Both the position numbers and the translations under genes were made by a program. Of a stretch of 64,000 nucleotides of DNA, positions 494 to 34,043 are shown piece after piece. The notes beneath the pieces are model-generated. The model was not told the DNA's origin. It made no database searches and worked only from the letters and a program-made list of their open reading frames with translations. Every line of letters begins with the position of its first letter. Positions within the stretch are counted from its first letter, which is position 1. This DNA comes from Patescibacteria group bacterium (GTDB taxonomy: Bacteria > Patescibacteriota > Microgenomatia > UBA12405), in the NCBI GenBank assembly GCA_038062455.1, contig JBBTXE010000001.1:58371-122370 (forward strand), in the 5' to 3' direction.

Positions 494-1321
494 ATGAAAA
501 ACTATAATATTGCAAGTATTAAGAGTTTGGTTGACAAAGCCAAGTCGGCTTTAGTAGTCGTTCCCACCCTTTCCGTTGATAACGTTGGTGCCGCTCTCGC
601 CTTGGCCCTTTCCCTTAAAAAGAGTGGCCGCGAAGTCAAAGTCTATTGTCCTCAAAAACCTGATCAAAATTACAGCAAACTAAGCGGTTTGGAATTAATC
701 ACCGATACTTATATTGCTTCTGATCTGGTTGTTTCTCTTAACTACCCCCTCAATCAAATCGAACAGGTTTCCTACAACGATGACGGTGGTCGCCTAAATT
801 TGGTCGTTAAAACCAAATTCGGTGCCGCCAAGGTGGAAAACAGCCAAATTGTTATCAACAATAGTTCCTCTTCGACTGATCTTTGTTTTATGCTTGGTGA
901 CGAATCTCCGCTTGGTGCCAATGCCTCAATCGTCAATCAGGGAGACTGGATTTTAATTTCCCCCGTTGCTGTTACCAAAACCTGGGCCAAAGCCACTTTG
1001 GTTGATGCCGATGCTCCTTTTTCCGAAATCTTTACCTTTTTATTACCCATGCTTGGGTTAAATCTGGATATCGACTCCGGCAAGGATTTGCTCATTGGGC
1101 TTCGGGTAGCCACCCAGTCCTTTAGTGTCAATGTCTCCCCCGAATCTTTCGAAGCCGGGGCTGTTTGTCTTCGGGCTACCCAACCTCCTGAAGCTGACGG
1201 CCTTGCCGCTCCCGCTTTCGCCCCCAATACTTTTGACAATCAAACCCCGATTGAAAATATCGAAAAAGGCGCCTCTTTTGTTCCGGGCACCAACAAAGCC
1301 AATCCCACCCCGGTGGTTTAA
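494..1321 (+). CDS. hypothetical protein, degenerate DHH/NrnA-like fold (catalytic DHH-type residues not conserved)
   Basis: The N-terminus IKSLVDKAKSALVVVPTLSVDNVGAALALALSLKKSGREVKVY parallels the DHH phosphoesterase N-terminal motif region, but the Asp/His metal ligands are replaced. The position after infB is where nrnA-like genes often sit. Confidence 0.4.
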   Translation: MKNYNIASIKSLVDKAKSALVVVPTLSVDNVGAALALALSLKKSGREVKVYCPQKPDQNYSKLSGLELITDTYIASDLVVSLNYPLNQIEQVSYNDDGGRLNLVVKTKFGAAKVENSQIVINNSSSSTDLCFMLGDESPLGANASIVNQGDWILISPVAVTKTWAKATLVDADAPFSEIFTFLLPMLGLNLDIDSGKDLLIGLRVATQSFSVNVSPESFEAGAVCLRATQPPEADGLAAPAFAPNTFDNQTPIENIEKGASFVPGTNKANPTPVV

Positions 1322-1323
1322 AA
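1295..1323 (+). repeat. direct repeat copy 1 (29 nt, covers the last 8 codons plus stop of ORF 494-1321)
   Basis: aaagccaatcccaccccggtggtttaaaa is identical to 1622-1650. Confidence 0.9.
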
Positions 1324-1338
1324 CTAAATATTTTTACT

Positions 1339-1608
1339 ATGGCAACAAATATCTCAAAACTGGAAACACTGTTAAGAGAAAGAGGATATAACATATATTG
1401 TAGCCCAATATTTAACCCTCCGAGAACACCCCTTGATGTACCCGTTATTAAGAATATTGGTGAGAAAGGTATTAAATGTTCTGGTGCTTTTTATGTCCCA
1501 GAGAGAACACGACTTTTTGATTGGTGTGGATCATGCCCAGCATATTCACCAGATATAAAATCCCGAGAAAGAAAAGTTAAAAACAATAACCTTCGTTTTG
1601 AAGAATAA
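1339..1608 (+). CDS. hypothetical small Cys-containing protein (cassette ORF)
   Basis: 89-aa ORF with an ATG start that fills the space between the two 29-nt repeat copies. No recognisable family. Confidence 0.4.
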   Translation: MATNISKLETLLRERGYNIYCSPIFNPPRTPLDVPVIKNIGEKGIKCSGAFYVPERTRLFDWCGSCPAYSPDIKSRERKVKNNNLRFEE

Positions 1609-1621
1609 TTCAAAAATTAAT

Positions 1622-1650
1622 AAAGCCAATCCCACCCCGGTGGTTTAAAA
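1622..1650 (+). repeat. direct repeat copy 2 (29 nt echo of the 3' end of ORF 494-1321)
   Basis: Perfect match to 1295-1323, non-coding in this context. Confidence 0.9.
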
Positions 1651-1655
1651 AGGAT

Positions 1656-1898
1656 ATGAAAATAAATTACGATAGTGCTATTTCCATCAAGGCTATCGGA
1701 TGTGGAGCCAATGCGACTATTCACAGAGGCTTAGATCAATATACTCTTAGGCGTAAGGTAGGAGACGCCAAAGGGATAAAAGAATTGTGTGGTGGATGTG
1801 TTTTCAGACGTGTTCCTGACCAACCCAATATGGCTGAAATGATTCCGGGACAAAAACGCTTGCGTGCATGTGTAGACGAAAATGCACCTACAACATAA
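1656..1898 (+). CDS. hypothetical small Cys-containing protein
   Basis: 80-aa ORF that starts 5 nt after repeat copy 2. It contains a CGGC motif; no family recognised. Confidence 0.4.
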   Translation: MKINYDSAISIKAIGCGANATIHRGLDQYTLRRKVGDAKGIKELCGGCVFRRVPDQPNMAEMIPGQKRLRACVDENAPTT

Positions 1899-1903
1899 TT
1901 CCA

Positions 1904-1912
1904 TGTTATAAT
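1904..1912 (+). promoter_or_regulatory. candidate extended -10 promoter element (TGTTATAAT) for rpsO-pnp
   Basis: Exact TGnTATAAT match about 75 nt upstream of the rpsO ATG. Confidence 0.3.
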
Positions 1913-1932
1913 CTCTCTGCACTACCTTTGGT

Positions 1933-1958
1933 ATTTCCGTAGCCATTCGGAAATTTTT
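1933..1958 (+). promoter_or_regulatory. hairpin plus T-run in the rpsO leader (weak terminator of the upstream ORF or S15 autoregulatory element)
   Basis: ATTTCCG-8 nt loop-CGGAAAT followed by TTTT. Confidence 0.3.
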
Positions 1959-1986
1959 ACTAAAACCAATCTTAGCGCTATAAACT

Positions 1987-2256
1987 ATGGCCTTAACCAC
2001 CGAAGAAAAAACGGAAATTGTTACCAAGTTTGCTCAAGCCAAAGGCGATACCGGCTCTCCTGAAATCCAAGTAGCGATTCTGTCAAAAGAAATCGACAAA
2101 CTTCAGGGACATTTAGGTGATAACAAACATGATTCACCGGCCAAAAGGGGACTATTAAGCAAAATCGCCAAAAGACGCCGGCTTCTTCGCTACCTTTCTC
2201 TTCACAATGATGACCGCTATGGTAAGTTAATCAAAGCCTTGGGTCTAAAAAAATAA
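1987..2256 (+). CDS. rpsO: 30S ribosomal protein S15
   Basis: 89 aa. GDTGSPEIQVAILS...RRRLLRYL is the S15 signature. Immediately upstream of pnp. Confidence 0.95.
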   Translation: MALTTEEKTEIVTKFAQAKGDTGSPEIQVAILSKEIDKLQGHLGDNKHDSPAKRGLLSKIAKRRRLLRYLSLHNDDRYGKLIKALGLKK

Positions 2257-2258
2257 AA

Positions 2259-4451
2259 ATGGACAATTTTTCCTTTGATCTAAAATTATCAGACGATAAG
2301 CAGATTCACCTTGAATCAGGCAAACTCGCCCCTCAAGCCAATGCTGCAGTTCTGGCCGCCTTTGGTAAAACCGTAGTTTTGGCCACCGTCGTTTTAGGGG
2401 CCGTTGACAAAAGCAAAGATTATTTTCCACTTTCAGTTGAGTTCACCGACAAACTTTACGCCGGCGGATTTATCAAAGGCGGCAAATGGGTCAAACGCGA
2501 AGGCGCCCCCTCTGATACCGCCATTCTTTTTGGTCGGATTATCGATCGGGCTATTCGTCCTCTTTTCCCCGCCGGTTTCAAACAGGAAGTTCAGGTTATG
2601 GCCACAATTTTAAGTAATGACAAAGATAATGACGTCATTATCCCTGCCTTTACGGCCGTCTCCGCCGCCCTAATGCTTTCCGATATTCCCTTTAACGGTC
2701 CGGTATCGGCTGTCCGTGTTGGCCTAAAAGAAGGCAAAATCTCTCTCTTCCCCACCGTTTCTGAACTTAAGACCTCACCTCTTGACCTACTGGTCTGCCG
2801 CGATTTAGAAGGCATCAATATGATTGAGGCCGGTGCTCAAATTGTCGATAACGACATCGTCCTTTCAGCTATTGAAGAGGCTTTCAAAACCGGCGAACAA
2901 CTAAACCGGCGGTTGACTGAATTTTCCCAAAAACACGCCAAAGCAAAAATCAAGTTCGAAGACCTCTCCCCCCCGAAAGAATTAGTAACCGAAATTTCCA
3001 AACTTATTAATCCCAACCTTGAAGAGTTTATGAAAGACGGCACCGACGGTGCTCATATTGCTGCCGAAGAAAAAATCAAAGAAATAGTTATCAGTAACTA
3101 TCAAACCCAAATTGATGCCGGTGAAATCGAAGTCGGCCAGCTTATCGATGCAGTTGATGTTTTAGTTAGACTCTATGTCCGCCAACATACCCTCGCCGGC
3201 ACCCGCTATGACCATCGCCGGCTGGATGAAATTCGGCCTCTAAATATTGAAGTCGATGTCTTGCCTTGTACCCACGGCTCCGCCCTCTTTGAACGTGGTC
3301 TGACCCAAGCTATTACCATTACCACTCTCGGTCCTCTGGCTGATCAGCAATATTTACAGGACAGCAGCGGCGAATCTACCAAGCGCTATATTCATTATTA
3401 TTCCGCTGCTCCCTTTTCCACCGGTCAGACCGGACGTTTCGGCCGTCCCGGTCGTCGGGAAATCGGTCACGGGGCTCTAGCCGAAAAAGCTCTGCTTCCG
3501 GTTCTTCCTTCAATTGAAGAGTTTCCTTACACTATTGCCCTAACATCCGAAGTTTTATCTCAAAATGGCTCCTCCTCCATGGCTTCCACCTGCGGTTCCA
3601 CCCTAAGTCTTATGGCCGCTGGTGTCCCCATCAAAGATAAAGTAGCCGGTATTTCCGTGGGCATGGTATCAGACGCTGACAAATATCTTTTATTAACCGA
3701 TATTGCCGGTCTTGAAGATCACTGCGGCGATATGGATTTTAAAATTACCGGTACCCGAACAGGTATCACTGCCATTCAACTCGATATCAAACGAATGGGC
3801 TTAAGCCTCAATATGATCCGCGATACCTTCACCGCCTCGACCAAAGCCCGTTTAGCCATTTTGGATAAAATTGATTCGATTCTTTCCGCTCCCAGAACAG
3901 AACTCTCTCCCTATGCTCCCAAAATTAAATTAATCACTCTCCCTGAAGACAAAATCGGTGAAGTGATTGGCAGCGGTGGCAAAACCATCAAAGCCCTAAT
4001 GGAAAAATTTGCTGTCCAAATCGATATTGATGATGATGGCCGGGCCTCTATTTGTTCTCAAGATATAGCTAAAATCGATGCCTGTGTCTTCCAAATCGAA
4101 TCAATGATTCGGGATATTAATATCGGTGAAGAATTTGATGGAGTAGTTACCAGAGTTGAAAACTTTGGCGCCTTTGTCGAATTTTTACCCGGTCGTGAAG
4201 CCCTCCTCCACGTTTCCGAAATGACCGGCGGCTTCTTATCTGATCCGGGAACTATCATCAAAATTGGCGATAAACTTCACGTCCGGGTTTCCGGTTTTAA
4301 CGACAATTACCAAATCAAACTTTCCGCTCCCGAATTCAAAGCCGCTCATCCTAGCAATCCTGATGCGGTACCCGGTCGTCCCCGCCCCGATTTTGACCGC
4401 AATCGCCAAAACTTCCGCAACTTCAGTCCTCCCGTCCGTCCCCGAAGATAA
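2259..4451 (+). CDS. pnp: polyribonucleotide nucleotidyltransferase (PNPase)
   Basis: 730 aa with two RNase PH-like domains, KH (IGEVIGSGGKTIK) and S1 (GVVTRVENFGAFVEF) domains. Confidence 0.97.
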   Translation: MDNFSFDLKLSDDKQIHLESGKLAPQANAAVLAAFGKTVVLATVVLGAVDKSKDYFPLSVEFTDKLYAGGFIKGGKWVKREGAPSDTAILFGRIIDRAIRPLFPAGFKQEVQVMATILSNDKDNDVIIPAFTAVSAALMLSDIPFNGPVSAVRVGLKEGKISLFPTVSELKTSPLDLLVCRDLEGINMIEAGAQIVDNDIVLSAIEEAFKTGEQLNRRLTEFSQKHAKAKIKFEDLSPPKELVTEISKLINPNLEEFMKDGTDGAHIAAEEKIKEIVISNYQTQIDAGEIEVGQLIDAVDVLVRLYVRQHTLAGTRYDHRRLDEIRPLNIEVDVLPCTHGSALFERGLTQAITITTLGPLADQQYLQDSSGESTKRYIHYYSAAPFSTGQTGRFGRPGRREIGHGALAEKALLPVLPSIEEFPYTIALTSEVLSQNGSSSMASTCGSTLSLMAAGVPIKDKVAGISVGMVSDADKYLLLTDIAGLEDHCGDMDFKITGTRTGITAIQLDIKRMGLSLNMIRDTFTASTKARLAILDKIDSILSAPRTELSPYAPKIKLITLPEDKIGEVIGSGGKTIKALMEKFAVQIDIDDDGRASICSQDIAKIDACVFQIESMIRDINIGEEFDGVVTRVENFGAFVEFLPGREALLHVSEMTGGFLSDPGTIIKIGDKLHVRVSGFNDNYQIKLSAPEFKAAHPSNPDAVPGRPRPDFDRNRQNFRNFSPPVRPRR

Positions 4452-4475
4452 CCAAAATCGTATATACTGATATCA

Positions 4476-5537
4476 ATGCCTGACCCCGACACTTTAACTA
4501 TTACCGCCGCTATTGACAAGTTAATTGCCAAAAGTAAATCTGTTCCTCTTCCCTCCGAACTAAGCAGTCGTCTTGAAGAACTTTTTTCCCAACTTCAAAT
4601 AAATTCCCGCTCCGAAGAAACATTCTGGGCTTTTTATCAGAGCACCGCCAAATACATTGATTGGATTACCCGCCTCCCTTGGAAAACTCAAAGCGACGAC
4701 ATCCTCGATACCCGGCACACCCAAGAGAAACTTGACGAAAATCATTATGGATTGCAGGATGTTAAATTAAGGATTCAGGAATATGTTTCCGTTCTATCTC
4801 TCCAAAAGACCCGTCATCCCGATCTACCCTTTCAGGCCCCCATTCTTTTATTTGTCGGATTGGTCGGCACCGGCAAAACCACCATCGCCAAATCTATTGC
4901 CGACTGTCTTAACCGAAAACTTATCCGTATTCCCTTCGGCGGTCTTGGTGATCCTCTTTATCTTCGGGGGCAGAGTCGTCTTCACCCCGAAGCCGAACCC
5001 GGAGCCATCATCCGTGGGCTGGCCACCTGCGGCACCCGAAACCCAGTTATATTACTTGACGAAATTGACAGGGTGGCTGATGGAGCTCTCAACACCATTA
5101 TGGGAGTTCTAGTTGAGCTTCTTGACCCCGAACAAAATTCCCGTTTTGCCGACTACTATCTTGATTACCCCTTTGATTTATCCCAGACCTTTTTTGTGGC
5201 CACCTGCAACAACACTTCCCGGATTGCTACCGCTGTTTTGGACCGTCTGGAAATAATTCAAATGCCTTCTTACACCGATGAGGAAAAACTTAATATAGGT
5301 CGTAGTTATCTTCTCCCCCGGGCCATCAAAGAAGCCGGTCTCAATCCGGGTGAATTAACAATTATCGACTCCGTTTGGCCCAATATTATTCGTCCCTTAG
5401 GTTTTGATGCCGGTGTCCGAACCTTAAAGCGGAATATTGAAGGACTTTGCCGCAAAACTGCCACCCTGATTTTATCCGGCCAAAAACAAGTAGTGGTTGA
5501 TGAGTCCAATGTTAAAAAATATCTGCCTCAATGGTAA
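4476..5537 (+). CDS. Lon-type AAA+ ATPase module without a protease domain
   Basis: YGLQDVKLRIQEYV, Walker A GLVGTGKTT and Walker B ILLDEIDR resemble the Lon ATPase region. The ORF ends before any Ser-Lys protease domain. Confidence 0.7.
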   Translation: MPDPDTLTITAAIDKLIAKSKSVPLPSELSSRLEELFSQLQINSRSEETFWAFYQSTAKYIDWITRLPWKTQSDDILDTRHTQEKLDENHYGLQDVKLRIQEYVSVLSLQKTRHPDLPFQAPILLFVGLVGTGKTTIAKSIADCLNRKLIRIPFGGLGDPLYLRGQSRLHPEAEPGAIIRGLATCGTRNPVILLDEIDRVADGALNTIMGVLVELLDPEQNSRFADYYLDYPFDLSQTFFVATCNNTSRIATAVLDRLEIIQMPSYTDEEKLNIGRSYLLPRAIKEAGLNPGELTIIDSVWPNIIRPLGFDAGVRTLKRNIEGLCRKTATLILSGQKQVVVDESNVKKYLPQW

Positions 5538-5545
5538 GACGAAAG

Positions 5546-6162: not shown

Positions 6163-6213
6163 CAAAAAATGTCCCCCCGATTGCTCGAGGGGCGTGATTA
6201 AAGAAATTATAAC

Positions 6214-6846: not shown

Positions 6847-6858
6847 TTTATTAAATTT

Positions 6859-8610
6859 ATGACTACTGATAACAAAAATCGTCCTCAACAGTATTTTGGC
6901 TCCAAAGGCCCCATTAAAAATTTAGGATCTTCCCGCGATTTTGTCCGAATTGCCTCCCTTGGCGGTTTTGGTGATGTCACCCAAAATATGTTCGTTTACG
7001 AATATTTCCCCGGCGGTAACGAGGCCCAAAGCCAAATTATTATTGTTGATTGCGGGGTTGGTTTTCCTGAAGATGATGCCTTTGGTGTCGATCTTCAAAT
7101 CCCCGATACTAAATACCTCGAAGACAGAAAAACCCGGATTTTGGGTATTTTTATTACCCACGGTCACGAGGACCATATTGGGGCCATCCGTTTTATTCTG
7201 CCAATTTTAGGTAAATCCATTCCTATTTTTGCCCCCAAAACTGCCGCCGCCTTTATTGAATCACGACTCCAGGAAAGCCAAATCCGGGCTTCTATCAAGG
7301 TCTATCAAAACGGTGATCTTTTTAACATCGGCCCCTTTACCGTCGACCCCATCCGGGTCAATCATTCCATTCCCGACACTTTCCATTTTGCTATTACTAC
7401 CCCCATTGGCATTTTTTACCACGGTTCTGATTTCAAATTTGATGTTTTCCCCCTTGATGGCAAGCCTTCTGATTTAGCCCATATCGCCCGCATTGGTGAA
7501 AAGAAAGTTGTTGCCCTGCTATCGGACTGTTTAGGGGCCGACCACGAGGGTTTTTCACCCTCCGAGTCTTCCATTGCTGAAAAATTTGAACATGATATCA
7601 AAACCGCCAAAGGCCGGGTTTTTGTTACTTCCATTAGTAGCAATATTGTCCGCTGGGGGCAGGCTATCGACTATGCCAAGAGAGCCGGTCGAAAAGTAGT
7701 GGTAGTCGGCTTCTCGGTTACCAAAGCCATTGAAATTGCCCAGACCCTAGGTTATGTCAACCTCACCGACGCTGATTTAATTCCGGTTGAGCGGGTTAAA
7801 AATTTTGCCGATAATAAGCTAATCTTTTTAGTGGCCGGTTTTGCTGGTCAGCCCAATTCAGCCCTTTCTAAAATGGTTATGGGCAAACATAAAGTCAAAA
7901 TCAGCTCCGGCGATAAAGTCATTTTCTCTTCCCCCGACTACATTCCCGGCACCTCTACTCAAATCTATGATCTAATTGATACTCTTTCCAAAATGGGGGC
8001 TGAAGTAATTTATGGTGAAGAGCAGGAGATTCATGTTTCCGGCCACGGTTATCAAAAAGAACATGCTATTTTAATTGATTTGGTTCGGCCTAAATTTTTA
8101 CTTCCCATCGGCGGCAACTTTCGTCACATCAAAAGTTACCAAACCATGGCCAAAAACATGGGTTATCGTGACGACCAGTTTATCTTTCCTGATGTCGATT
8201 CAGCCGTTACTTTTACCTCTGATGGTAAAGCTGACACCAAATACCATATTCCACTTCACAAAGTCCTTATCGATGGTTTGGGAATCGGTGATGTCGGTAC
8301 CACTGTTTTACGGGACCGAAAAACTCTGGCCGAAGAAGGTATGTTTTCCTTTGTTATTTTACTCAACAAAGACAGCGGCAAAATGTTTAAAGAACCGGTT
8401 ATTCTTTCCCGCGGCTTTGTCTTTATGAAGGAAAATACGGATCTTCTTGATTATCTCAAAAAAGAAATCATTCGAAAATTTACCCAAGTGACCAGTTCTC
8501 CGGCCAATTTTGATTTTATCCGCGAAGAACTCCAGGCCTTTCTTGAAGGGATAATTCTCCAAAAAACCGGCCGCCAGCCCATGGTTTTACCCCTGATTAT
8601 TGAGGTATAG
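6859..8610 (+). CDS. rnj: ribonuclease J (metallo-beta-lactamase/beta-CASP)
   Basis: 583 aa. THGHEDHIGA motif, beta-CASP region and C-terminal domain. Confidence 0.9.
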   Translation: MTTDNKNRPQQYFGSKGPIKNLGSSRDFVRIASLGGFGDVTQNMFVYEYFPGGNEAQSQIIIVDCGVGFPEDDAFGVDLQIPDTKYLEDRKTRILGIFITHGHEDHIGAIRFILPILGKSIPIFAPKTAAAFIESRLQESQIRASIKVYQNGDLFNIGPFTVDPIRVNHSIPDTFHFAITTPIGIFYHGSDFKFDVFPLDGKPSDLAHIARIGEKKVVALLSDCLGADHEGFSPSESSIAEKFEHDIKTAKGRVFVTSISSNIVRWGQAIDYAKRAGRKVVVVGFSVTKAIEIAQTLGYVNLTDADLIPVERVKNFADNKLIFLVAGFAGQPNSALSKMVMGKHKVKISSGDKVIFSSPDYIPGTSTQIYDLIDTLSKMGAEVIYGEEQEIHVSGHGYQKEHAILIDLVRPKFLLPIGGNFRHIKSYQTMAKNMGYRDDQFIFPDVDSAVTFTSDGKADTKYHIPLHKVLIDGLGIGDVGTTVLRDRKTLAEEGMFSFVILLNKDSGKMFKEPVILSRGFVFMKENTDLLDYLKKEIIRKFTQVTSSPANFDFIREELQAFLEGIILQKTGRQPMVLPLIIEV

Positions 8611-8621
8611 ACCGAATAGAT

Positions 8622-8652
8622 CTTGACAAAGCTTGACAAAGTATGCCATAAT
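8622..8652 (+). promoter_or_regulatory. sigma70-like promoter/operator of the TA cassette: tandem CTTGACAAAG x2, -35 TTGACA (8623-8628), 18 nt spacer, -10 CATAAT (8647-8652)
   Basis: Perfect 10-bp tandem duplication containing two TTGACA hexamers. The -10 box ends 5 nt before the ATG at 8658. Confidence 0.45.
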
Positions 8653-8657
8653 ATCTT

Positions 8658-8942
8658 ATGGCCACAGTCAATATTTCTATCACTGCCCAACAGAGCAAAA
8701 TTGTCGATCACTTTATCAAACTTTATGATTTTGAAAATAGAAGCGAGTTTTTTCGCACCCTGATTCGCTTTATTTCTCTTCGGCCTGACTTGGTTTCTCA
8801 AAGTACCACTTATCCCTTTATCGAGCCGGCCGATCGAAGTGTTAAATCGGTCATGAAGAGTTTCTCGAAAACAAAAAAATACAATCAACAGTTTTTGAAA
8901 GATTTGGAGATAGGTTTAAAGGAAAGCCAAACCTTTAATTGA
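8658..8942 (+). CDS. putative antitoxin (ribbon-helix-helix-like)
   Basis: 94 aa. The N-terminal MATVNISITAQQSKIVD beta-strand/helix pattern is typical of CopG/RHH antitoxins. Its stop overlaps the toxin start (ATGA). Confidence 0.5.
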   Translation: MATVNISITAQQSKIVDHFIKLYDFENRSEFFRTLIRFISLRPDLVSQSTTYPFIEPADRSVKSVMKSFSKTKKYNQQFLKDLEIGLKESQTFN

Positions 8943-9187
8943 TGAACAGTTTGTCTCTGACCCCCCGCCAAGACAAGTATCTTAAGGACAGGAGATTGGA
9001 AAAAAAGTTTATAAAACAACTTAATTTTCTTTTGGAAAACCCTTTTCACCCCAGTTTAAATCTTGAATTACTCGAACCCAAAGAAAAAGGTCTCTATAGC
9101 TTTCGTCTTGATCGTCAATATCGGGTTATCTTTATCTTCACCAAAGGCGATATTGAAGTTATCACTATCACCAACCATTATCGTTAA
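8939..9187 (+). CDS. RelE/ParE-family type II toxin
   Basis: 82 aa. LYSFRLDRQYRVIFIF..GDIEVITITNHY resembles the RelE/ParE core. Translationally coupled to the upstream small ORF. Confidence 0.6.
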   Translation: MMNSLSLTPRQDKYLKDRRLEKKFIKQLNFLLENPFHPSLNLELLEPKEKGLYSFRLDRQYRVIFIFTKGDIEVITITNHYR

Positions 9188-9204
9188 GTATCGAGGATTA
9201 ATTT

Positions 9205-9252
9205 AAACCGGCCGCTAACCCATGATTCTGCCCCTGATCATTGAAGGTATAG
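9205..9252 (+). repeat. diverged echo of the rnj 3' end (non-functional fragment)
   Basis: aaaccggccgcTAAcccatgattctgcccctgatcattgaaggtatag aligns with rnj 8564-8610 (TGRQPMVLPLIIEV* versus TGR*PMILPLIIEG...), with roughly four fifths of positions identical. Confidence 0.75.
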
Positions 9253-9256
9253 GTCC

Positions 9257-9664
9257 CTAAGGACTCCAGTTTCTTACTATAGGTATTTTGGTTTCAATAG
9301 GTTCCTTTGCTTTTATTTCAACCGAACAACCATCTTCAGGTCTAACCCTTCTTACTGCGATGGTGAAAGGTTCGCTATCTTCTCCATATCCTCCAACCGC
9401 TTCTCTGGTTGCCACAGGAATCCCCATATTAGCCAAGTCTTGTCTAATTTTTGCTTGTCTTTGCCATGTCGTATCAATTATTAATACAGTTGATTCAGGT
9501 TCATCAGTTAATAACTTGGCAACTTTCGCAACAGCCGGATCTAATTTAGGAGCTTTATTGTAACTCCTCCGTGCTCGAGGGATAAATTTTATTAACTCAA
9601 CCTCCTCCGGCATTGCCACTCTTACGGTTTCACCTTCCGGAATTCCGCCCCTATTTCTTGGCAT
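9257..9664 (-). CDS. hypothetical protein
   Basis: 135-aa ORF on the minority strand. No family recognised. Confidence 0.45.
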   Translation of the reverse strand: MPRNRGGIPEGETVRVAMPEEVELIKFIPRARRSYNKAPKLDPAVAKVAKLLTDEPESTVLIIDTTWQRQAKIRQDLANMGIPVATREAVGGYGEDSEPFTIAVRRVRPEDGCSVEIKAKEPIETKIPIVRNWSP

Positions 9665-9893: not shown

Positions 9894-9925
9894 GTAGAGA
9901 CCCCGCCGCTGCGGGGCGTCTCTAC
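9894..9925. repeat. REP-like palindrome (GTAGAGACCCCGCCGCTGCGGGGCGTCTCTAC)
   Basis: Imperfect hairpin sharing both arms with the 28-bp palindromes at 44967 and 45285. Confidence 0.7.
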
Positions 9926-18593: not shown

Positions 18594-19319
18594 ATGGGCT
18601 ACACCTATTTAAAAAAGTCTTCACCAAAAAGTCGCCGCCATTCCCTCAAGCCCCGAAAAATTTTTGCTGTTGTTTTTTTAAGTCTAGGGGTGTTTTTATT
18701 TCTCTCCGCCGTTTTACCCATTATTCAGTTTCAATTTGAGTATTCTCTTAAATTTAATCAAATAATCAGCCCTCTTTCTTCCCGTTTTTCCGACTCCGGC
18801 TCTGTTTTAGGCGAGAATACCGATTTTACCCAGCTGTCAAATTGGTTCATACCGGGTTCCGCCGTTGTCTCAAGTAACCCTAATTTTTTTTCACCCGACA
18901 ACAAAATTGCCTCCTATTCAATCTCTATTCCTAAACTAAAAATTAGTGAGGCTGAAGTTCTTTTTGGCAGTTCAGATCTAAAAACCAGTTTAATCCAATA
19001 CCCCCAAACCGCCCTTCCGGGTCAGCTGGGTAGTTCGGTAATTTTCGGACATTCGGTTTTACCCCAGTTTTTCAATCCCAAATCCTATCTAACTATTTTT
19101 TCCACTCTCTATAAATTAAAGTTGGGTGATGAAGTTTTTGTTGATTTTGATAACGTCAAATATCGCTATTTAGTTGAGGAAATGTATGAAGTCCAACCCA
19201 CTGATCTTTCGGTGCTGGAACAACGCTTTGATGGCCGCTATCTCACCCTTATTACCTGTTCACCTCCGGGTACTTATCTTCGCCGCCTAATTGTTAAAGC
19301 CCGGATTGTAGAAATTTAA
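18594..19319 (+). CDS. sortase family transpeptidase
   Basis: N-terminal TM anchor, catalytic His (VIFGHS), TLITCSP (TLxTC) Cys motif and a conserved Arg near the C-terminus. Confidence 0.8.
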   Translation: MGYTYLKKSSPKSRRHSLKPRKIFAVVFLSLGVFLFLSAVLPIIQFQFEYSLKFNQIISPLSSRFSDSGSVLGENTDFTQLSNWFIPGSAVVSSNPNFFSPDNKIASYSISIPKLKISEAEVLFGSSDLKTSLIQYPQTALPGQLGSSVIFGHSVLPQFFNPKSYLTIFSTLYKLKLGDEVFVDFDNVKYRYLVEEMYEVQPTDLSVLEQRFDGRYLTLITCSPPGTYLRRLIVKARIVEI

Positions 19320-19855
19320 ACCTGGTTTTTTCTACTCCAATATAATTTTTCGGTCAAACCGCCCTCTCTCTCAAACTTTTCAATCATGGCTTTGATCTGT
19401 TTTTCGAGAAGATAGGTGACAATGTGGCAGAGAGTCAATAAAAAATTCGCGTTTGCCTCGGGATTATTAGATAGTTTCGCTTTGACTTTTAAGTCACCTA
19501 AGTCACTTAAGTTTCTTAAGTTACTTAAAGAATAAGCAATTGTCTGAAATTTTCCAATAATTATCGAACCTTTCTCGTAAACTTTCATTTGATGTTGTCT
19601 TAGGAAGTCTTCATAATCGGCTTGCAGTTCTTCAAAAGACGCCTTGGCTACGCCCAATAGTTTTATTTCTCCCTTTTTCGAGGTTTGGCTTTGTCCGACT
19701 CCTTCAACAATATTTTGTTTTCCTGATCTAGCGGCCTGTTCCATCTGGTCCCTTGTTCGGGATTTATAATCAATGTTTTTTTTAACAAACTCCACCGTCA
19801 AATCATGGATAATCAAAGCATATCTGTAGGTTAAAAGATATTTATATTTTTCCAT
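19316..19855 (-). CDS. four-helix-bundle protein (23S rRNA intervening-sequence-protein-like)
   Basis: YRYALIIHDLTVEFVKK...QMEQAARSGKQNIVEG...ASFEEL pattern of the four-helix-bundle (TIGR02436-like) family. Confidence 0.65.
   Translation of the reverse strand: MEKYKYLLTYRYALIIHDLTVEFVKKNIDYKSRTRDQMEQAARSGKQNIVEGVGQSQTSKKGEIKLLGVAKASFEELQADYEDFLRQHQMKVYEKGSIIIGKFQTIAYSLSNLRNLSDLGDLKVKAKLSNNPEANANFLLTLCHIVTYLLEKQIKAMIEKFEREGGLTEKLYWSRKNQV
19490..19528. repeat. 9-bp tandem repeat TAAGTYWCY x4.3 inside the four-helix-bundle gene
   Basis: taagtcacc taagtcact taagtttct taagttact taaag, translated on the minus strand as LSNLRNLSDLGDLK. Confidence 0.8.
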
Positions 19856-25123: not shown

Positions 25124-25146
25124 CTAAACTGATCCAAATCATCTTC

Positions 25147-31400: not shown

Positions 31401-32223
31401 ATTAGTCAAACTTGGTGTTCCGGTAGGGGTTATCGCCGCTCAATCTATTGGCGAGCCGGGAACTCAATTAACCCTTCGGACCAAGCATACCGGTGGAGTC
31501 CTGGGTGTTGACGTAACGCAGGGTTTACCCCGTGTTCAGGAACTTTTTGAAGTCCGAACCCCCAAACTTCCCTCTCCATTAGCTGAAATTGGCGGCAAGA
31601 TTAAGGTTAAAGAATCTGTCGACGGATATGAAGTTAAAGTTGCCGGTAAAGACAAAAACAATGCTGCCAAAACCGTTACTTATATACTCCCCAGCAATGT
31701 CACTCTATTAGTTGCCGATGGCGATCTGATAGTTTCCGGCACCCAACTTTGTTCCGGTCCTCTTGACGTCAGAGAAATTTTGGAAGTCAGTGGACTTGAG
31801 AGTGCCCAAAAATATCTCATCAATTGTATTCAAGGTGTTTACGAATCCCAGGGTATTTCCATCCATGACAAACATCTTGAAGTTATCGTTAAAGAAATGA
31901 GTGACAAGCTCAAAATTGAAGATCCGGGCGATACCAATTTCCTTTACGGTCAAATTGTCACCCGGGCTGTCTATCAGGACGAAAACGATCAGGCCAAAGC
32001 CAAACCCGACGGTAAAGTTGCCAAAGGCAAAAAGGTTTTGCTTGGCCTAATTCAATCTTCTCTGACTACCGGTTCCTGGCTATCAGCCGCTTCTTTCCAG
32101 CAAACCACTTCAGTTTTAACTGAAGCCTCGCTTTTAGGTGAGGTCGATCACTTGATTGGGCTAAAGGAAAATGTTATTATCGGACGTCTCATTCCGGTCG
32201 GAAAAGACGCAAAAATTCAGTAA
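28486..32223 (+). CDS. rpoC: DNA-directed RNA polymerase subunit beta'
   Basis: 1245 aa. Zinc finger CYCGKYKK...CDKCG, catalytic NADFDGDQM. Overlaps the rpoB stop by 8 nt. Confidence 0.97.
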   Translation: MFKFKNMLDFTGIKIKLASPEEILSWSNGEVLKPETINYRSWRPEKDGLFCEKIFGPSHDYECYCGKYKKIRFKGVICDKCGVEVTTSKVRRERMGHISLAAPIVHLWYLRNTPSPISVILDVPQKELESVVYFTKYLVTSVDNDKRKEALSNLETNSQKRQTQIDIDTKTSIEKTKTLVVADNKEFKNKIKNPEQLLIAQKERDVRFKQDVQKLENKASAEKNRIQSLMNFLEDKIKSLRVLSVLTDEEEFYLAQFKSNIFYEAKMGAESLLEVLGQLDLPATVKDLKKELAKTSSKLKKKKIMYKIRILNGMIGEEIDPSWVVLRNVPVIPPDLRPMVQLTGGRFATSDLNDLYRRLINRNNRLKKLIKLSAPEIILRNEKRMLQESVDILIDAQKSAKNKRKNNVKRLPRSLSDLLRSKKGRFRRNLLGKRVDYSGRSVVVVGPELKLNQVGLPKEIALEMYRPFVLRELMNIGLAANIKSAKNLIDHRVNEVYDILERVTKNTYVLLNRAPTLHKLSIQAFKPVLVDGLAIRIHPCVCKGFNADFDGDQMGVHLPLSELSQKEAKKLMLPSKNLLKPADGSPISIPSQEMAVGCYYITSVRTEDLAKQEKTDFKGLSIMADDAEVTLAYQSAKIKLRELIAVRHQGKLIKTTYGRLWFNSVLPPEFEYINQPMAGSKALNDLIVHSLEIAGRLKTVKLIDSLKDIGFAGFTLSGLSLSMADCGYLPGKEKIIQTADKRIAEINDNFIMGLISNDERKRLCQSIWMEVTEDIAEKTWATLDIDSPIRVVSNAGIKRASKDQIKQLSGMRGLMVDPTGKIVQLPTKSNFREGLSVFEYITGARGTRKGLADTALRTADAGYLTRRLVDSAHVAITHEDDCGTTKFWAVNRNEKGREKFFGRRLLGRVLGTDVINSKGKIIVKKGTPVDNHLQILIENSDINTVEVRSPLTCKSKYGLCRQCYGWDLSNRKLVKLGVPVGVIAAQSIGEPGTQLTLRTKHTGGVLGVDVTQGLPRVQELFEVRTPKLPSPLAEIGGKIKVKESVDGYEVKVAGKDKNNAAKTVTYILPSNVTLLVADGDLIVSGTQLCSGPLDVREILEVSGLESAQKYLINCIQGVYESQGISIHDKHLEVIVKEMSDKLKIEDPGDTNFLYGQIVTRAVYQDENDQAKAKPDGKVAKGKKVLLGLIQSSLTTGSWLSAASFQQTTSVLTEASLLGEVDHLIGLKENVIIGRLIPVGKDAKIQ

Positions 32224-32226
32224 ATA

Positions 32227-32649
32227 ATGCCCACAATTAATCAATTAATCCGAAAAAAAAGAATCGTTCGTCGGGAAAAACTTAAATCGGTTGCCCTTCG
32301 GGGTAATTTCAACAGTCTTAAAAATACTCTTGTTCCTACCTACAATCCCCAGAAAAAAGGTGTTGTCACTGTTGTCAAAACCATGACTCCCAAAAAACCT
32401 CATTCGGCTCTCCGCAAAGTTGCCAAAATCCGTTTGAGTAATCACTCCACTATTACTGCCTACATTCCCGGTATTGGCCACAATCTGGCCGAACATGGCA
32501 TCGTTTCTATCCGGGCCGGCCGGGTCCGTGACCTTCCCGGTATCCGTTATCACGTTATTCGGGGCCGCTATGATGCTTCTCCGGTGGCCGGCCGTCTTCA
32601 GTCCCGCAGTAAATACGGTGTCAAACGTCCCGCCAAAGCCACTGCCTAA
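32227..32649 (+). CDS. rpsL: 30S ribosomal protein S12
   Basis: [10 protein letters not shown]...[10 protein letters not shown] signature. Confidence 0.97.
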
Positions 32650-32690
32650 CTTTATAAACTTTACAAACTTTTTAACTTTATAAACTCAAA
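32648..32690 (+). repeat. 8-9 bp tandem repeat AACTTTAY(A) x5 filling the rpsL-rpsG spacer
   Basis: aactttat a aactttac a aacttttt aactttat a aactcaaa. Confidence 0.7.
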
Positions 32691-32692
32691 CA

Positions 32693-33175
32693 ATGTCTAG
32701 AAAAGGTCAAACTAAAATTCGTCGTCTCGAACCCGACACTCTCTACCAGAGTCCGATTGTCGCCAAATTAATTAATCGCAGTCTTAAAGACGGCAAAAAA
32801 ACTGCCGCTCAAAATCAGGTCTATAAAGCTCTGGAAATTTTGAAAAAAGAATCTAAATCCGAAGACGTTTTAACCACTCTCGAACAGGCTCTGGATAATA
32901 TCAAACCCAAGGTTGAGGTCCGCCCCCGCCGAATCGGTGGCGCTGTCTATCAAGTGCCGACTCCGGTTCGGGGTTCCCGCCAATATTCCCTGGCCATCCG
33001 TTGGCTGGTCACTGCCGCCCGGGCCCGGGCTAACAAACAATATCATACTTATGGTGAAAAACTGGCCGCCGAACTATTTTCAGCTTTCAATGGTGAAGGC
33101 GCCGCTGTTACCAAACGAAGTGAAGTTGAACGTATGGCCGAGGCCAACAAGGCGTTTTCACATATGCGTTGGTAA
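32693..33175 (+). CDS. rpsG: 30S ribosomal protein S7
   Basis: 160 aa. PDTLYQSPIVAKLIN...AEANKAFSHMRW. Confidence 0.97.
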   Translation: MSRKGQTKIRRLEPDTLYQSPIVAKLINRSLKDGKKTAAQNQVYKALEILKKESKSEDVLTTLEQALDNIKPKVEVRPRRIGGAVYQVPTPVRGSRQYSLAIRWLVTAARARANKQYHTYGEKLAAELFSAFNGEGAAVTKRSEVERMAEANKAFSHMRW

Positions 33176-33180
33176 ACTTC

Positions 33181-33960
33181 CTATAAACCTCTTGCCACTC
33201 TCCTTAAAACAACATTAGTTGTTTGTTCTGGGGTCAAAAAATGGGGAACTTGATAAGAGTCAGTATCCCTAACAAGACCTAACATGTACGGGTAAAGTGC
33301 TTTTCTAACTTCCATCGCCGACAATTCCCTTGTAGATGTAAGAAAAGAAGTGTGTAGCTCTGGCCGGTGCTTAAATAGACGAATAATATCAACTGGCCCA
33401 TCCGCTTGCATTCTGGTTATTATTTTCAACCAATAGGGGTTTTCAACATTAGCACACCAAACAGCTGGAGCAATCCGCCTATGGATCTGCAAATAATGTT
33501 CTTCGTCCGGAACATCAACTTCCTTCTCAGGCAAAAGAATCACGGCATCAACCAAACCCGACGTTGACCATAATTGTTCTCTCTGTTCAATATTAACGAT
33601 TGGCTGTCTTCCTTTTTGTCTGACAATATATGAATCTGGCTCCAGCATTAAAACAAAAGGTGTGTTTATGTCTGCCGTCAGAGCTCTAACCTCTCGCATT
33701 TCTGATACGGCCCACATATGTCCCCGGGTTCCCTCAAACCCACCCGACATTACCATCTTCCGAGCATTTTTAAAGTCACCATCAAAAATTGCACTATTCT
33801 CTTGCGCTAGACCACTATCAAACGAAAGGTTAAAAACTGGACAAGGCGGTTGGGTAAAACCCTCCCTTAGTAAAGGCAAACAATTGATGACCCAATTGGC
33901 CACCTTCCAACTCCTCCAATTTTCCCTAATATCATTCTCTACTTCATTTCTTGCGCCCAT
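33181..33960 (-). CDS. hypothetical protein with a cytidylyltransferase-like (RfaE-II/TagD-like) core and a degenerate HxGH motif
   Basis: KMVMSGGFEGTRGHMWAV...IVRQKGRQPIVNIEQREQLWSTSGLVDAVILLP parallels nucleotidyltransferase motifs GxFDxxHxGH ... R...L..L..VD.V. Confidence 0.35.
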   Translation of the reverse strand: MGARNEVENDIRENWRSWKVANWVINCLPLLREGFTQPPCPVFNLSFDSGLAQENSAIFDGDFKNARKMVMSGGFEGTRGHMWAVSEMREVRALTADINTPFVLMLEPDSYIVRQKGRQPIVNIEQREQLWSTSGLVDAVILLPEKEVDVPDEEHYLQIHRRIAPAVWCANVENPYWLKIITRMQADGPVDIIRLFKHRPELHTSFLTSTRELSAMEVRKALYPYMLGLVRDTDSYQVPHFLTPEQTTNVVLRRVARGL

Positions 33961-34004
33961 TTTTTATGAAGACAGTACAACTTAACGAACAAAGTATATC
34001 AAAA

Positions 34005-34043
34005 GCCAAAGCCAATAAAGCCTTTTCTCACATGAGGTGGTAA
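34005..34043 (+). repeat. echo of the rpsG 3' end (AKANKAFSHMRW*), non-functional fragment
   Basis: Codon-by-codon comparison with 33137-33175. The ten residues ANKAFSHMRW are identical, with six synonymous codon changes, the same stop, and a similar first few nt after the stop. Confidence 0.8.

Follow-up and report, generated by a model that had tools for sequence, protein, structure and literature searches.

Small accessory cassettes closed by echoes of the upstream gene's tail at three resident genes of a CPR bacterium

Introduction

CIMEs and microCIMEs, the integrase-less remnants of ICEs and IMEs, are found in streptococci at the 3' ends of rpsI, rpmG, rplL and fda (PMC7563491). Intact elements are fewer than such remnants, and decay is most advanced in the element farthest from the target gene (PMC7563491). 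Restriction-modification genes have been shown to insert with long target duplication (Furuta et al. 2010, PMC2853133). [quoted passage not shown] Finally, in E. coli a single crossover of circular DNA with a gene-end fragment yields gene-end duplications of 109-950 bp (PMC3240628). Here we describe how a layout that occurs three times in one 64-kb window (the whole stretch of DNA that was analysed) compares with these systems. The host belongs to the Shapirobacteria (candidate phylum, CPR).

Recurrence of the echo layout

Three resident genes of the window, ORF 494-1321, rnj and rpsG, show the same order. The stop codon of the resident gene is followed by an accessory cassette of 0.3-0.83 kb and then by a copy of the gene's tail, 32-47 nt with its stop codon, here called the echo. 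Each repeat terminates at the stop codon or within 5 nt beyond it. This layout had been reported by the first-pass annotation, and all three echoes were found at the coordinates it gives. When the last 60 nt of each called gene (n=79) were aligned by Smith-Waterman against that gene's own 3 kb of downstream sequence, a scan of the kind that the same annotation had proposed, the three genes were the only outliers, with scores of 29.5, 28 and 19 at sites 1-3 against 13 for the next best gene. The controls reached at most 17.5 (upstream) and 16 (reverse complement). The score of 19 at site 3 is not significant alone, background reaching 19.5 when the whole 64 kb is searched, and the echo there is secured by its frame, its stop codon and its synteny with L096. 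Scores of at least 19 were obtained for 3 of 79 genes here and for 7 of 2018 genes in 162 unrelated loci (Fisher p = 0.005); clade-wide enrichment is weak (3 of ~215 genes, p = 0.06). A search of the window found no comparable echoes of gene 5' ends.

The structure of site 3 recurs in ten independent short-read contigs at 99.9-100% identity (nine of them at 100%), and one long-read contig is collinear with sites 1 and 2. An assembly artefact, which the first-pass annotation had named as a possible refutation, is excluded for the echo structure, and the echo pattern is real and non-random. Contigs of the host organism are all clonal. Neither a donor arrangement nor a circular junction nor a polymorphic empty site turned up. 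The comparison with relatives came out as had been anticipated: the cassettes are accessory, without counterpart in relatives at these junctions. At the relatives' empty sites rpsG runs straight into a convergent gene and rnj straight into a hairpin terminator, so the echoes mark the ancestral junctions, and each echo would be the ancestral gene tail, still joined to its ancestral downstream DNA.

The hypothetical gene upstream of rpsO

Resident gene 1 (494..1321, + strand) encodes a hypothetical protein of 275 aa that is conserved in Shapirobacteria and has no Pfam match. Homologs with 62-69% amino-acid identity and the same synteny are present in L001, L002, L004 and L006, and the C-terminus is poorly conserved. 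The live tail (1292..1323, +), which encodes NKANPTPVV and comprises the stop codon plus 2 nt, is followed by cassette 1 (1324..1618, +), with a GC content of 33.6% against 42% for the window. Its ORF (1339-1608) encodes a Cys-rich protein of 89 aa. The sole full-length homolog, P0047, is distant (49% identity), and two giant proteins contain a repeat that matches residues 40-66. The cassette was not found in the relatives compared at the gene 1 locus. Echo 1 (1619..1650, +) is identical to the live tail at 31 of 32 positions, including an exact stretch of 29 nt, and the lone difference is synonymous (AAC/AAT). With copies so nearly identical, a plain target duplication would fit this site equally well.

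The echo is followed by an older accessory ORF of 80 aa (1656..1898, +), a possible zinc ribbon to judge from its CGGC motif, and then by the rpsO promoter and leader, which start at ~1903. Reading the relatives by eye, a small ORF with equal Cys spacing (CGGC motif) occupies the same slot in L001, the intergenic sequence of L004 is an empty site in which gene 1 is followed only by the 92-nt rpsO leader, and in L006 there are 1240 nt of other genes between gene 1 and rpsO.

rnj and its toxin-antitoxin cassette

The RNase J gene rnj (6859..8610, +; Pfam RNase_J_b_CASP and RNase_J_C) ends in the live tail KTGRQPMVLPLIIEV followed by stop (8564..8610, +). Cassette 2 (8611..9204, +; GC 36.4%) comprises an antitoxin-like ORF (8658-8942) and a RelE/HigB-type toxin ORF (8939-9187) and has a promoter at 8623-8652 (11/12 match to TTGACA-18-CATAAT, with TG). 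The toxin ORF matches Pfam HigB-like_toxin at 31 bits (cut-off 27), YoeB and ParE more weakly, and a RelE-like toxin in PHROG. Echo 2 (9205..9252, +) is a decayed rnj tail, TGR*PMILPLIIE, that carries an in-frame TAA and a 1-nt insertion and ends in TAG. Over its first 40 nt it shares 85% identity with the live tail 8564-8610, and the synonymous bias at this site is weak in the window (P = 0.019). The start of the rnj echo falls within the block AAAACCGGCCGCCA(A/G)CCCATGG, which is near-invariant in nucleotides across all relatives.

A further accessory ORF of 135 aa (9257..9664, -) lies between echo 2 and the native terminator; it has no Pfam or PHROG match and no tblastn match in L001-L007, L177, L179 or L181. 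The echo now stands a 0.64 kb insertion away from its terminator, the ancestral rnj hairpin GTAGAGAC...GTCTCTAC (9894..9925), which is ~1.3 kb from the live rnj stop. In the empty sites of L002 and L004 the GTAGAGACG hairpin is directly 3' of the rnj stop.

The toxin-antitoxin cassette is found downstream of rnj in L177 and L187 as well. The orthologous echo of L177 (5250-5295) is intact, with the native GTAGAGACG hairpin terminator right after it, and differs from the live tail of L177 at 10 positions with one amino-acid change (P<2e-5). Third-position identity between the window and L177 is 0.63-0.70 for rnj and the toxin-antitoxin genes alike; the cassette and its echo are thus as old as the split of the two lineages, and no recent event is documented at site 2. 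L177 also carries a second block, holding an FMN reductase, a hydrolase and two further ORFs, that starts 7 nt past the rnj stop. The order is rnj stop, second block, truncated start of the rnj tail, toxin-antitoxin cassette and echo, and the two rnj events differ in their left boundary (about -47 and at least -52). In this arrangement insertions are stacked at one and the same stop codon.

rpsG and its nucleotidyltransferase cassette

The gene for ribosomal protein S7, rpsG (32693..33175, +; Pfam Ribosomal_S7, E = 5e-51), ends in the live tail AEANKAFSHMRW followed by stop (33137..33175, +). Cassette 3 (33181..33960, -) encodes a 259-aa cytidylyltransferase-like nucleotidyltransferase; its stop codon is 5 nt from that of rpsG and its conserved promoter region reaches ~34005-34015. 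The protein has 43 homologs of ~260 aa, one of them a named Microgenomates MAG protein. The homolog contexts fetched (L091, L093, L188-L190) are unrelated variable regions, and the variable region around the nearest homolog also holds a TrwB/VirD4-like ATPase and CopG. An AlphaFold2 model (pLDDT 93.7), for which Foldseek ranks CTP:phosphocholine cytidylyltransferase, FAD synthetase and TagD highest among PDB structures, and a conserved GGFEGTxGH motif suggest a cytidylyltransferase-like enzyme.

Echo 3 (34003..34043, +) is the rpsG tail of a second allele, AKANKAFSHMRW followed by stop, and 34005-34043 is identical to the live tail 33137-33175 at 30 of 39 nt. The cassette 3 homology runs into the first ~11 nt of the echo, and this overlap, GCCAAAGCCAA, resembles both partners. 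The echo is collinear with the rpsG tail of L096 and the DNA downstream of it. Beyond it lies the ancestral neighbour of rpsG, a convergent gene for 128 aa (34057..34443, -). In L096, whose S7 is 89% identical, the site is empty and the rpsG stop is directly followed by a remnant with homology to this gene's 3' end.

Seven of the nine differences between live tail and echo fall at third codon positions and one changes an amino acid. In 30,000 simulations with random substitutions no outcome was equally conservative (P<3e-5), which agrees with the earlier suggestion that the echoes are once-functional tails. Counted by eye, four of the five changes specific to echo 3 (relative to the live tail and L096) are synonymous, and 6 of 13 third positions are shared by live tail and echo. 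Their divergence is about that of the window and L096 genomes (third-position identity 0.52-0.63), and the clade-specific SHMRW ending kept in the echo marks its source as a relative. Since the tails differ almost only at synonymous positions, the two rpsG tails, and likewise the two rnj tails of L177, are shown to be different once-functional alleles, not a target duplication.

Search for mobility machinery

A Pfam scan of the ORFs in about the first 45 kb of the window found no integrase or transposase near the three sites, the sole exception among the scanned ORFs being an IS200-like Y1 transposase gene elsewhere in the window (44676-45278). Terminal inverted repeats and attC-like structures were likewise not found near the sites, and the statement that no recombinase lies beside them is confirmed for all three. 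Neither integrase nor transposase was found among the L177 ORFs scanned or beside the further echo loci L099 and L064, and no integrase was found at these targets in L177-L186 (precomputed Pfam tables), in selected scanned ORFs of relatives, or in ~81 kb of host genome. For L001-L007 and L096/L097 the comparison was confined to homologs of window proteins. The cargo of the three cassettes is ordinary, a toxin-antitoxin pair, a protein of nucleotidyltransferase fold and a small Cys-rich protein, and encodes no recombinase.

Discussion

The echo layout is the well-known mark left by single-crossover or homology-anchored insertion and does not represent a new kind of mobile system. Its best reading, which we hold tentatively, is a homology-anchored insertion (Campbell-type or one-sided) of imported DNA bearing its own gene tail. 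A short imported DNA would consist of its own copy of the tail and one or two accessory genes, and its recombination into the 3' end of the gene would push the original last 10-15 codons downstream. The product would be the gene body, the incoming tail and stop (with the ORF kept intact), the cargo, and the old tail with the old downstream DNA. The crossover would most likely be the work of the cell's homologous recombination once DNA has been taken up, either as a single crossover of Campbell type with a small circle or with a linear fragment anchored in the gene body, the far end of which joins at a short homology inside the resident tail. A finished unit of tail, cargo and echo would have homology to a conserved gene on both sides and could enter naive relatives via double crossover. 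New cargo would always land beside the live gene and older cargo would be displaced outwards. We infer three points: that RecA and not an integrase is the enzyme, in what form the DNA came in, and which tail is native.

Patescibacteria are naturally competent and have retained homologous recombination genes (PMC12455944). The repeats end just where a naive recipient would cease to be homologous to a donor of gene plus cargo, the cargo is small at 0.3-1.8 kb, and these features, together with the nearly invariant block at the start of the rnj echo and the overlap at site 3, fit homology-limited recombination. Against this reading, 30-47 nt of homology at 75-97% identity lies at the margin of what RecA can use, an illegitimate or site-specific join would still be required for the first event at each site, and a layout of gene tail, insert and echo is exactly what integrase-mediated elements leave too. 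The main rival is of that kind, although we consider it somewhat unlikely: three integrase-borne elements (ICE-, IME- or phage-like) would have decayed to one cargo gene each, a tyrosine or serine integrase having been specific for each gene 3' end, with the replacement tail in attP. The live tail would then correspond to attL and the echo to attR, and later elements would enter the gene-proximal att site, giving rise to stacking. CIMEs and microCIMEs at the rpsI, rpmG, rplL and fda 3' ends have the same layout (PMC7563491). The repeats of 29-47 nt overlap the stop codon, a tail borne by the element would explain the allelic divergence, and stacking is seen in L177 and at site 1. Toxin-antitoxin pairs are typical surviving cargo, and the variable region of the nearest 259-aa cargo homolog, with its TrwB/VirD4-like ATPase and CopG, also speaks for such elements. 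However, the relatives examined yielded no integrase at these targets, and neither did the ~81 kb of host genome or the surroundings of L099 and L064. Each cassette consists of precisely one gene or operon, flanked by 5-47 nt and free of pseudogene debris, whereas classical CIMEs measure 1.2-13 kb. The poorly conserved C-terminus of gene 1 makes it an unlikely integrase target, the rnj events differ in left boundary, and the repeats have neither a common core motif nor convincing dyad symmetry.

The near-identity of the copies at site 1 and the pseudogene-style decay of echo 2 in the window (stop codon, frameshift) would suit insertion of a foreign fragment in which a staggered or two-chromatid join doubled 30-47 nt of target, the copies being identical at birth and diverging later. 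Natural cases of 46 to ~400 bp are known, some overlapping gene 3' ends and mostly in competent species (PMC2853133). Such a duplication is nevertheless improbable here, as a neutral echo should gain non-synonymous changes at an equal rate and the rpsG and L177 rnj copies differ almost only synonymously, with the protein sequence retained in the echo. The third-position divergence of the rpsG copies is moreover of between-species size, although L096 lacks the insert, and the cargo is not a restriction-modification system. It is more doubtful still that the echoes are functional, in the sense that compact CPR genes hold cis-elements of the downstream unit (promoter, terminator context) inside the last codons of the upstream gene and only insertions keeping a tail copy by the downstream DNA survive; this would be a selection filter rather than a mechanism. 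The window and L177 echoes are identical at 37 of 45 positions, more than the third-position identity of 0.63 (p = 0.004), for which recombination offers no explanation; the L177 echo is intact despite long divergence and all echoes remain attached to ancestral downstream DNA. Yet the numbers are small, RNA structure in the tails is not significant (z-scores -0.95 to +1.7), no promoter-like site was found within any echo, and echo 2 of the window has been parted from its terminator. Chance similarity or an assembly artefact is suggested only by the whole-window nucleotide background at site 3 and has a negligible probability, being refuted for practical purposes by the outlier scores in the 79-gene scan, by tails that are in frame and end in stop codons, by synteny with relatives and by 11 independent assemblies, one of them long-read.

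The first-pass annotation had proposed an undescribed, gene-tail-targeting route of cassette acquisition. Repeated insertion after the same stop, as in L177, is supported; the novelty is not sustained, since the layout is the standard product of a single crossover in which the 3' end of a gene meets a DNA molecule with its own copy of that end, and has precedents (PMC7563491, PMC2853133, PMC5361080, PMC3240628). Nor is the implied recency or activity borne out, given the age of the toxin-antitoxin cassette and its echo, the lack of strain polymorphism and the weak clade-wide enrichment. Homology-anchored insertion and CIME-like remnants are both of known kinds, and this is the first description of such gene-tail insertions in CPR bacteria.

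Comparison with known systems

As in CIMEs, a direct repeat of the target 3' end lies on both sides of the insert, the gene is intact, the insert has no recombinase, accretion is in tandem with the oldest unit farthest from the gene, and ribosomal-protein genes are among the targets. Unlike CIMEs, no cognate integrase-bearing element is known for the rnj, rpsG or gene 1 targets in CPR, one target (gene 1) is not conserved, and the repeats are only candidate att sites. The inserts are 0.3-0.83 kb, unlike classical CIMEs (1.2-13 kb), and carry intact genes, unlike microCIMEs. The insertions with long target duplication (PMC2853133) share direct repeats of >30 bp, some overlapping gene 3' ends, a small insert without mobility gene, a single copy at the empty site of relatives, and competent hosts. 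Their copies are near-identical and their cargo is restriction-modification genes, whereas two of the three pairs here are diverged alleles with synonymous differences and no such system is present.

As at the Rhs, CDI and T6SS loci (PMC5361080), DNA anchored in a conserved 5' part would bring a new 3' end with cargo, the old 3' end would be shifted downstream, and successive events would stack. Those loci exchange long variable toxin domains with immunity genes, leading to diversification, whereas here the last 10-15 codons of housekeeping genes are concerned and the same protein is encoded. Integron cassettes, insertion sequences and transposons resemble the present units as small cassettes, promoter-bearing or promoterless, that accumulate in arrays; they differ in that no intI, attI, attC, transposase, terminal inverted repeats or short fixed-length target-site duplication is present here, and in that the repeats here are site-specific gene tails. 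Campbell-type integration (PMC3240628) likewise gives gene end, insert and duplicated gene end without a dedicated recombinase, in the laboratory and with 109-950 bp of homology, whereas the present cases are natural, have 30-47 nt and show no circular intermediate.

Copies of gene ends in the window

Three resident genes in the window are each followed by a small accessory cassette and then by an echo, a copy of the last 10-15 codons and stop codon of the same gene. At gene 1 (ORF 494-1321; site 1) the two copies, at 1292-1323 and 1619-1650, are identical at 31 of 32 positions. At rnj, which encodes RNase J (6859-8610; site 2), the live tail, meaning the present end of the gene, lies at 8564-8610 and is repeated at 9205-9252 with 85% identity over the first 40 nt, the echo containing an in-frame TAA and a 1-nt insertion. 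At rpsG (ribosomal protein S7, 32693-33175; site 3) the live tail at 33137-33175 encodes AEANKAFSHMRW followed by a stop, and the echo at 34005-34043 encodes AKANKAFSHMRW, likewise followed by a stop.

The last 60 nt of every called gene (n = 79) were aligned with the gene's own 3 kb of downstream sequence, with upstream and reverse-complement alignments as controls. The three sites scored 29.5, 28 and 19 and the next best match 13, against at most 17.5 in the upstream and 16 in the reverse-complement control, and chance similarity was rejected. The same scan of 2018 genes in 162 unrelated loci returned seven matches of at least 19 (Fisher p = 0.005 for the window, 3/79 against 7/2018). The excess over controls raised in the first-pass annotation is clear for the window, and weak for the clade as a whole (3 of approximately 215 genes, p = 0.06). 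No further echo was found in 17 kb flanking the window, and a control scan for echoes of gene 5' ends produced nothing comparable and none that was convincing. Degenerate echoes were sought, and none found, after ORF2, after the 135-aa ORF (9257-9664, minus strand), after the Y1 element described below and before fusA. A motif common to the three repeats (AAAGCCAAT, CCGG/GGCC) was judged to be due to chance.

Short-read contigs of separate runs, ten in all, agree across site 3 at 99.9-100% identity (nine at 100%), and sites 1 and 2 are collinear in one long-read contig. This agreement of 11 independent assemblies, one of them long-read, rules out assembly artefact as the source of the duplications. 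The contigs of this organism are all identical, and nothing polymorphic, such as presence or absence of a cassette, or recent was seen among them.

The rpsG locus

L096 is a related locus whose S7 is 89% identical to that of the window. In L096 a remnant of a convergent gene lies directly 3' of the rpsG stop codon, and the same gene follows the echo in the window. The alignment with L096 continues through the window echo into the downstream DNA, indicating that the cassette, a 259-aa gene (33181-33960, minus strand), is an insertion and that the echo marks the ancestral junction. The repeat, of more than 30 bp, is present once at the empty site in L096.

Nine of the 39 nt are changed between live tail and echo, seven of these at third codon positions, with one amino-acid change, and random-substitution simulations of rpsG tails produced no pair as conservative as the observed one. 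With L096 as third sequence, four of five echo-specific changes, counted by eye, are synonymous. Third positions of live tail and echo are identical at 6 of 13 codons (also by eye), a divergence as large as that between the genomes of the window and L096 (identity 0.52-0.63), although L096 does not have the insert. The echo retains the clade-specific SHMRW ending. An 11-nt stretch, GCCAAAGCCAA, is shared by the end of the cassette homology and the beginning of the echo, and resembles both the S7 tail and the cassette's own upstream region.

In the window rpsG and fusA lie approximately 9.4 kb apart (33176-42555), which breaks the usual rpsL-rpsG-fusA operon. This block, partly common to L096, contains genes for NUDIX, 2-hydroxyacid dehydrogenase, LytR_C, amine oxidase and metallo-beta-lactamase-fold proteins and for the dTDP-rhamnose pathway. 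In L099, a background locus with an S7 53% identical, rpsG and fusA are likewise separated, by 4.4 kb.

The rnj locus

The window belongs to a Candidatus Shapirobacteria (CPR/Patescibacteria) genome, and Shapirobacteria MAGs supply its nearest rnj matches in the genome collection, with 67-76% amino-acid identity and the same gene order. In two of the related loci, L002 and L004, the rnj stop codon is followed by a GTAGAGACG...CGTCTCTAC hairpin and the rnj repeat is present once, as expected of an empty site. A closer relative, L177, has an RNase J 95% identical to that of the window, followed by four extra genes, a truncated start of the rnj tail, a homolog of the toxin-antitoxin (TA) cassette of site 2, an intact echo (KTGRQPMVLPLIIEV and stop) and the hairpin. 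Since the hairpin lies directly after the echo in L177, the echo appears to be the original rnj tail, still joined to its native terminator. In the window the 135-aa ORF separates the echo from the hairpin at 9894.

The L177 live tail and echo show ten differences and one amino-acid change; in the window the synonymous bias at site 2 is weak (P = 0.019). Between the window and L177, third-position identity is 0.63 for rnj and 0.64-0.70 for the TA genes, so that the TA cassette and echo have been passed on together with rnj since the two lineages split. The two echoes are identical at 37 of 45 positions, above third-codon-position conservation (p = 0.004), and the echo starts in a block that is nearly invariant at the nucleotide level among relatives. 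Among the possible causes of this excess conservation are conversion of the echo by the live tail, a cis element under selection and retention as a homology arm. Folding z-scores showed no significant RNA structure in the tails, and a structured-RNA role for the echo was rejected on these grounds.

The four-gene block of the sister lineage (L177 2927-4655, also in L178-L183) is docked 7 nt after the rnj stop and encodes an FMN reductase, a serine hydrolase, an 85-aa ORF and an aspartyl-protease-like ORF (153 aa in L181, called as 72 aa in L177). There the TA pair downstream of the block has a deletion in its toxin gene.

The gene 1 locus

Relatives differ in what lies between gene 1 and rpsO: L004 has only a 92-nt rpsO leader, L006 has 1.2 kb of other genes, and in L001 the slot holds a small ORF whose CGGC motif resembles that of window ORF 1656-1898 (a likeness seen by eye). 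On this comparison the site 1 cassette, ORF 1339-1608, and the 32-nt repeat form a newer layer placed before an older accessory gene. The single difference between the copies is synonymous, and the gene 1 tail is itself not conserved in relatives. The expectation that relatives would have no cassette between the repeat copies is thus borne out at rpsG (L096) and rnj (L002 and L004), while site 1 offers a variable slot.

Short similarities (248-278 with 446-476, and 536-554 with 393-411) link ORF 129-488 to the start of ORF 494-1321, and suggest from sequence that these adjacent hypothetical genes may be distant paralogs.

Cargo of the cassettes

The site 2 cassette encodes a RelE/HigB-type toxin (Pfam HigB-like_toxin, 31 bits against a cut-off of 27; PHROG RelE-like toxin) with a small overlapping antitoxin-like ORF upstream, which has no family match, and a near-consensus promoter (11/12). 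In sequence and arrangement it has the features of a predicted type II toxin-antitoxin module. The 259-aa protein of site 3 belongs to a family of approximately 260 aa, one homolog being named as a Microgenomates MAG protein. Sequence search found no solved relative. In structure, its high-confidence model (pLDDT 93.7) resembles cytidylyltransferases and FAD synthetase; the protein is predicted to fold as a cytidylyltransferase-like nucleotidyltransferase, and the idea that it is a recombinase or nuclease in disguise was rejected. The contexts examined for its homologs are unrelated, variable regions, and the idea that echoes move with this gene family was set aside because homologs elsewhere have other neighbours and no echoes.

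The product of the site 1 cassette is a Cys-rich protein of 89 aa, whose only full-length homolog found is a distant one. Its Cys-rich core (residues 40-66) matches an 11-fold repeat in a protein of 2473 aa (P0048) and also one of 1625 aa (P0049). At sites 1 and 2 the cassettes have a higher AT content than the genome. Apart from the RelE-like toxin, the only PHROG match of the cargo is a marginal one of the 259-aa protein (E = 0.0097), and a phage origin was rejected since no viral contig contained a relative.

Echoes at other loci

In L099 the last ~27 nt and stop of fusA (7553-7579) are repeated 469 nt downstream (~8048-8076), beyond a 115-aa ORF that looks hydrophobic and has no family match; no integrase lies nearby. 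In an Oscillospiraceae MAG (L064) the tail of an anti-sigma-like DUF4367 gene (3950-5008, minus strand) is repeated 391 nt downstream (~3500-3560), over 56 nt and a further ~14 nt past the stop; its differences are synonymous or conservative, the signature of an allelic echo outside the CPR. In a Clostridiales locus (L026) the rnj tail (NPMILPVIMEV, 4228-4268) recurs as an echo at 4359-4401, 90 nt further on and past a GC-rich stretch, although this lies 20 nt from the contig end and may be an assembly effect.

Searches for recombinases

The first-pass annotation had noted that no recombinase adjoins the sites, and this was upheld by Pfam and PHROG scans of all cassette ORFs, together with the fold of the 259-aa protein, which revealed no integrase, relaxase, coupling protein or VirB4. 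Neither terminal inverted repeats nor attC-like structures were found at the sites. Among the Pfam-scanned ORFs of approximately the first 45 kb of the window, the only integrase or transposase is an IS200-like gene far from the sites. No integrase-bearing element was found at these targets in relatives (Pfam tables of L177-L186 and scans of selected ORFs) or in ~81 kb of this genome; the sample of relatives is small, and for L001-L007 and L096/L097 the check covered homologs of window proteins only. The scanned ORFs of every echo instance, including L099 and L064 from the background set, contain no recombinase. An integron gene cassette was rejected, there being no attC-type inverted repeats and no integrase or intI/attI platform, as was insertion of an IS or transposon, there being no transposase, terminal inverted repeats or short target-site duplication of fixed length at the sites and no echo at the only transposase-like gene.

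That gene (44676-45278; Pfam Y1_Tnp, 26.7 bits) begins 9 nt downstream of the fusA stop codon. Perfect GTAGAGAC...GTCTCTAC palindromes are found in association with it, the hairpins lying at 44967-44994, 45285-45312 and 9894-9925. In L004 and L179 its homologs come immediately after the hairpin of rnj or of the echo, and the element looks like a REP/RAYT-type or IS200-type element using terminator hairpins. Elsewhere in the window, the 23S rRNA intervening-sequence protein family is matched below threshold (29 bits, cut-off 33.8) by a 179-aa ORF (19316-19855, minus strand); L091 also has a gene matching this Pfam family, together with bAvd.

Origin of the gene-tail copies

At rpsG and at L177 rnj the differences between the copies are almost all synonymous. 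A neutral scar could not have stayed protein-like, which argues for two alleles over duplication; judged by their sequences, the copies are functional gene ends that evolved in different lineages and were later joined. The proposal that the echoes are tails of once-functional alleles is in this way supported. A process that docks cargo at gene tails while preserving the ORF is supported too.

The order gene tail, insert, tail copy is the product of a single crossover when the 3' end of a gene recombines with a DNA molecule that has its own copy of this end. Circular DNA with a gene-end fragment integrates by single crossover in E. coli and the gene end is duplicated (PMC3240628), and Patescibacteria are naturally competent and retain recombination genes (PMC12455944). 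Such homology-anchored insertion of imported DNA is favoured here tentatively, at a little short of an even chance. One feature that supports host recombination is the position of the repeat ends, at the stop codon or up to 5 nt past it (+0 to 5 nt), exactly the point at which a donor gene with cargo and a naive recipient cease to be homologous. The cassettes are tiny, debris-free and each filled by one gene or operon; in our judgement their form, the repeat ends and the failure to find a recombinase favour host homologous recombination over an integrase. Third-position identity is flat along rnj and rpsG, so that a breakpoint scan gave no signal either way. The main rival, in which the sites are instead CIMEs, integrase-less remnants of decayed integrative elements, is considered somewhat less likely. 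Streptococcal ICEs and IMEs target the 3' ends of rpsI, rpmG, rplL and fda and leave abundant att-bounded CIMEs and microCIMEs, in which the most decayed unit is farthest from the gene (PMC7563491). This is the same picture as here, including the stacking seen in L177, but the cognate integrase-bearing element was not found, though sampling is thin.

It is rather improbable that the echo is a working part of a recombinase-free mobile unit, kept or refreshed because units that lose it stop spreading. Such a unit would have its cargo bracketed by two copies of the last ~15 codons of a conserved gene, and its long left arm (gene body) and short right arm (echo) would both match the same locus in any relative, so that natural transformation alone could dock the cargo behind the gene, preserving the ORF regardless of the downstream DNA; the echo would be either retained or refreshed from the recipient's own tail. 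Duplication of a long target (PMC2853133), which fits site 1 best, is judged quite improbable.

If insertion is homology-anchored, competent ultra-small CPR bacteria gain accessory genes beside the essential, highly expressed rpsG and rnj without mobile-element machinery, and a neighbour's gene end is imported together with the cargo. This would fit reports of ribosomal-protein genes among those transferred in Patescibacteria (PMC12455944), and tail echoes would then be a cheap, annotation-free marker with which to date and orient events in metagenome-assembled genomes. If the sites are CIMEs, they point to CPR integrase families, targeting rnj and rpsG, that are still to be discovered. Were the echo part of a mobile unit, competent and streamlined CPR genomes would gain cassettes systematically by gene-tail docking.

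Comparison with known systems

As in long target duplication, the repeat exceeds 30 bp and is present once at the empty sites of rpsG and rnj. The near-identical copies of that process are matched at site 1 only, whereas those of rpsG and L177 rnj are diverged alleles with a synonymous bias. In homology-facilitated illegitimate recombination (HFIR), or C-terminal displacement, the old 3' end is kept downstream of the cargo beside ancestral DNA, as here, and the new 3' end comes from another allele or lineage, a likeness that holds at rpsG and L177 rnj and is weak for the window rnj. The suggestion of an undescribed route of cassette acquisition is thus not sustained, as the architecture is known from single crossover, from CIMEs (PMC7563491) and from long target duplication. 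Whether homology-anchored or CIME-derived, the sites extend known biology without adding a new kind of system, and the pattern adds a CPR case to the tail-displacement or att-remnant architectures already known.
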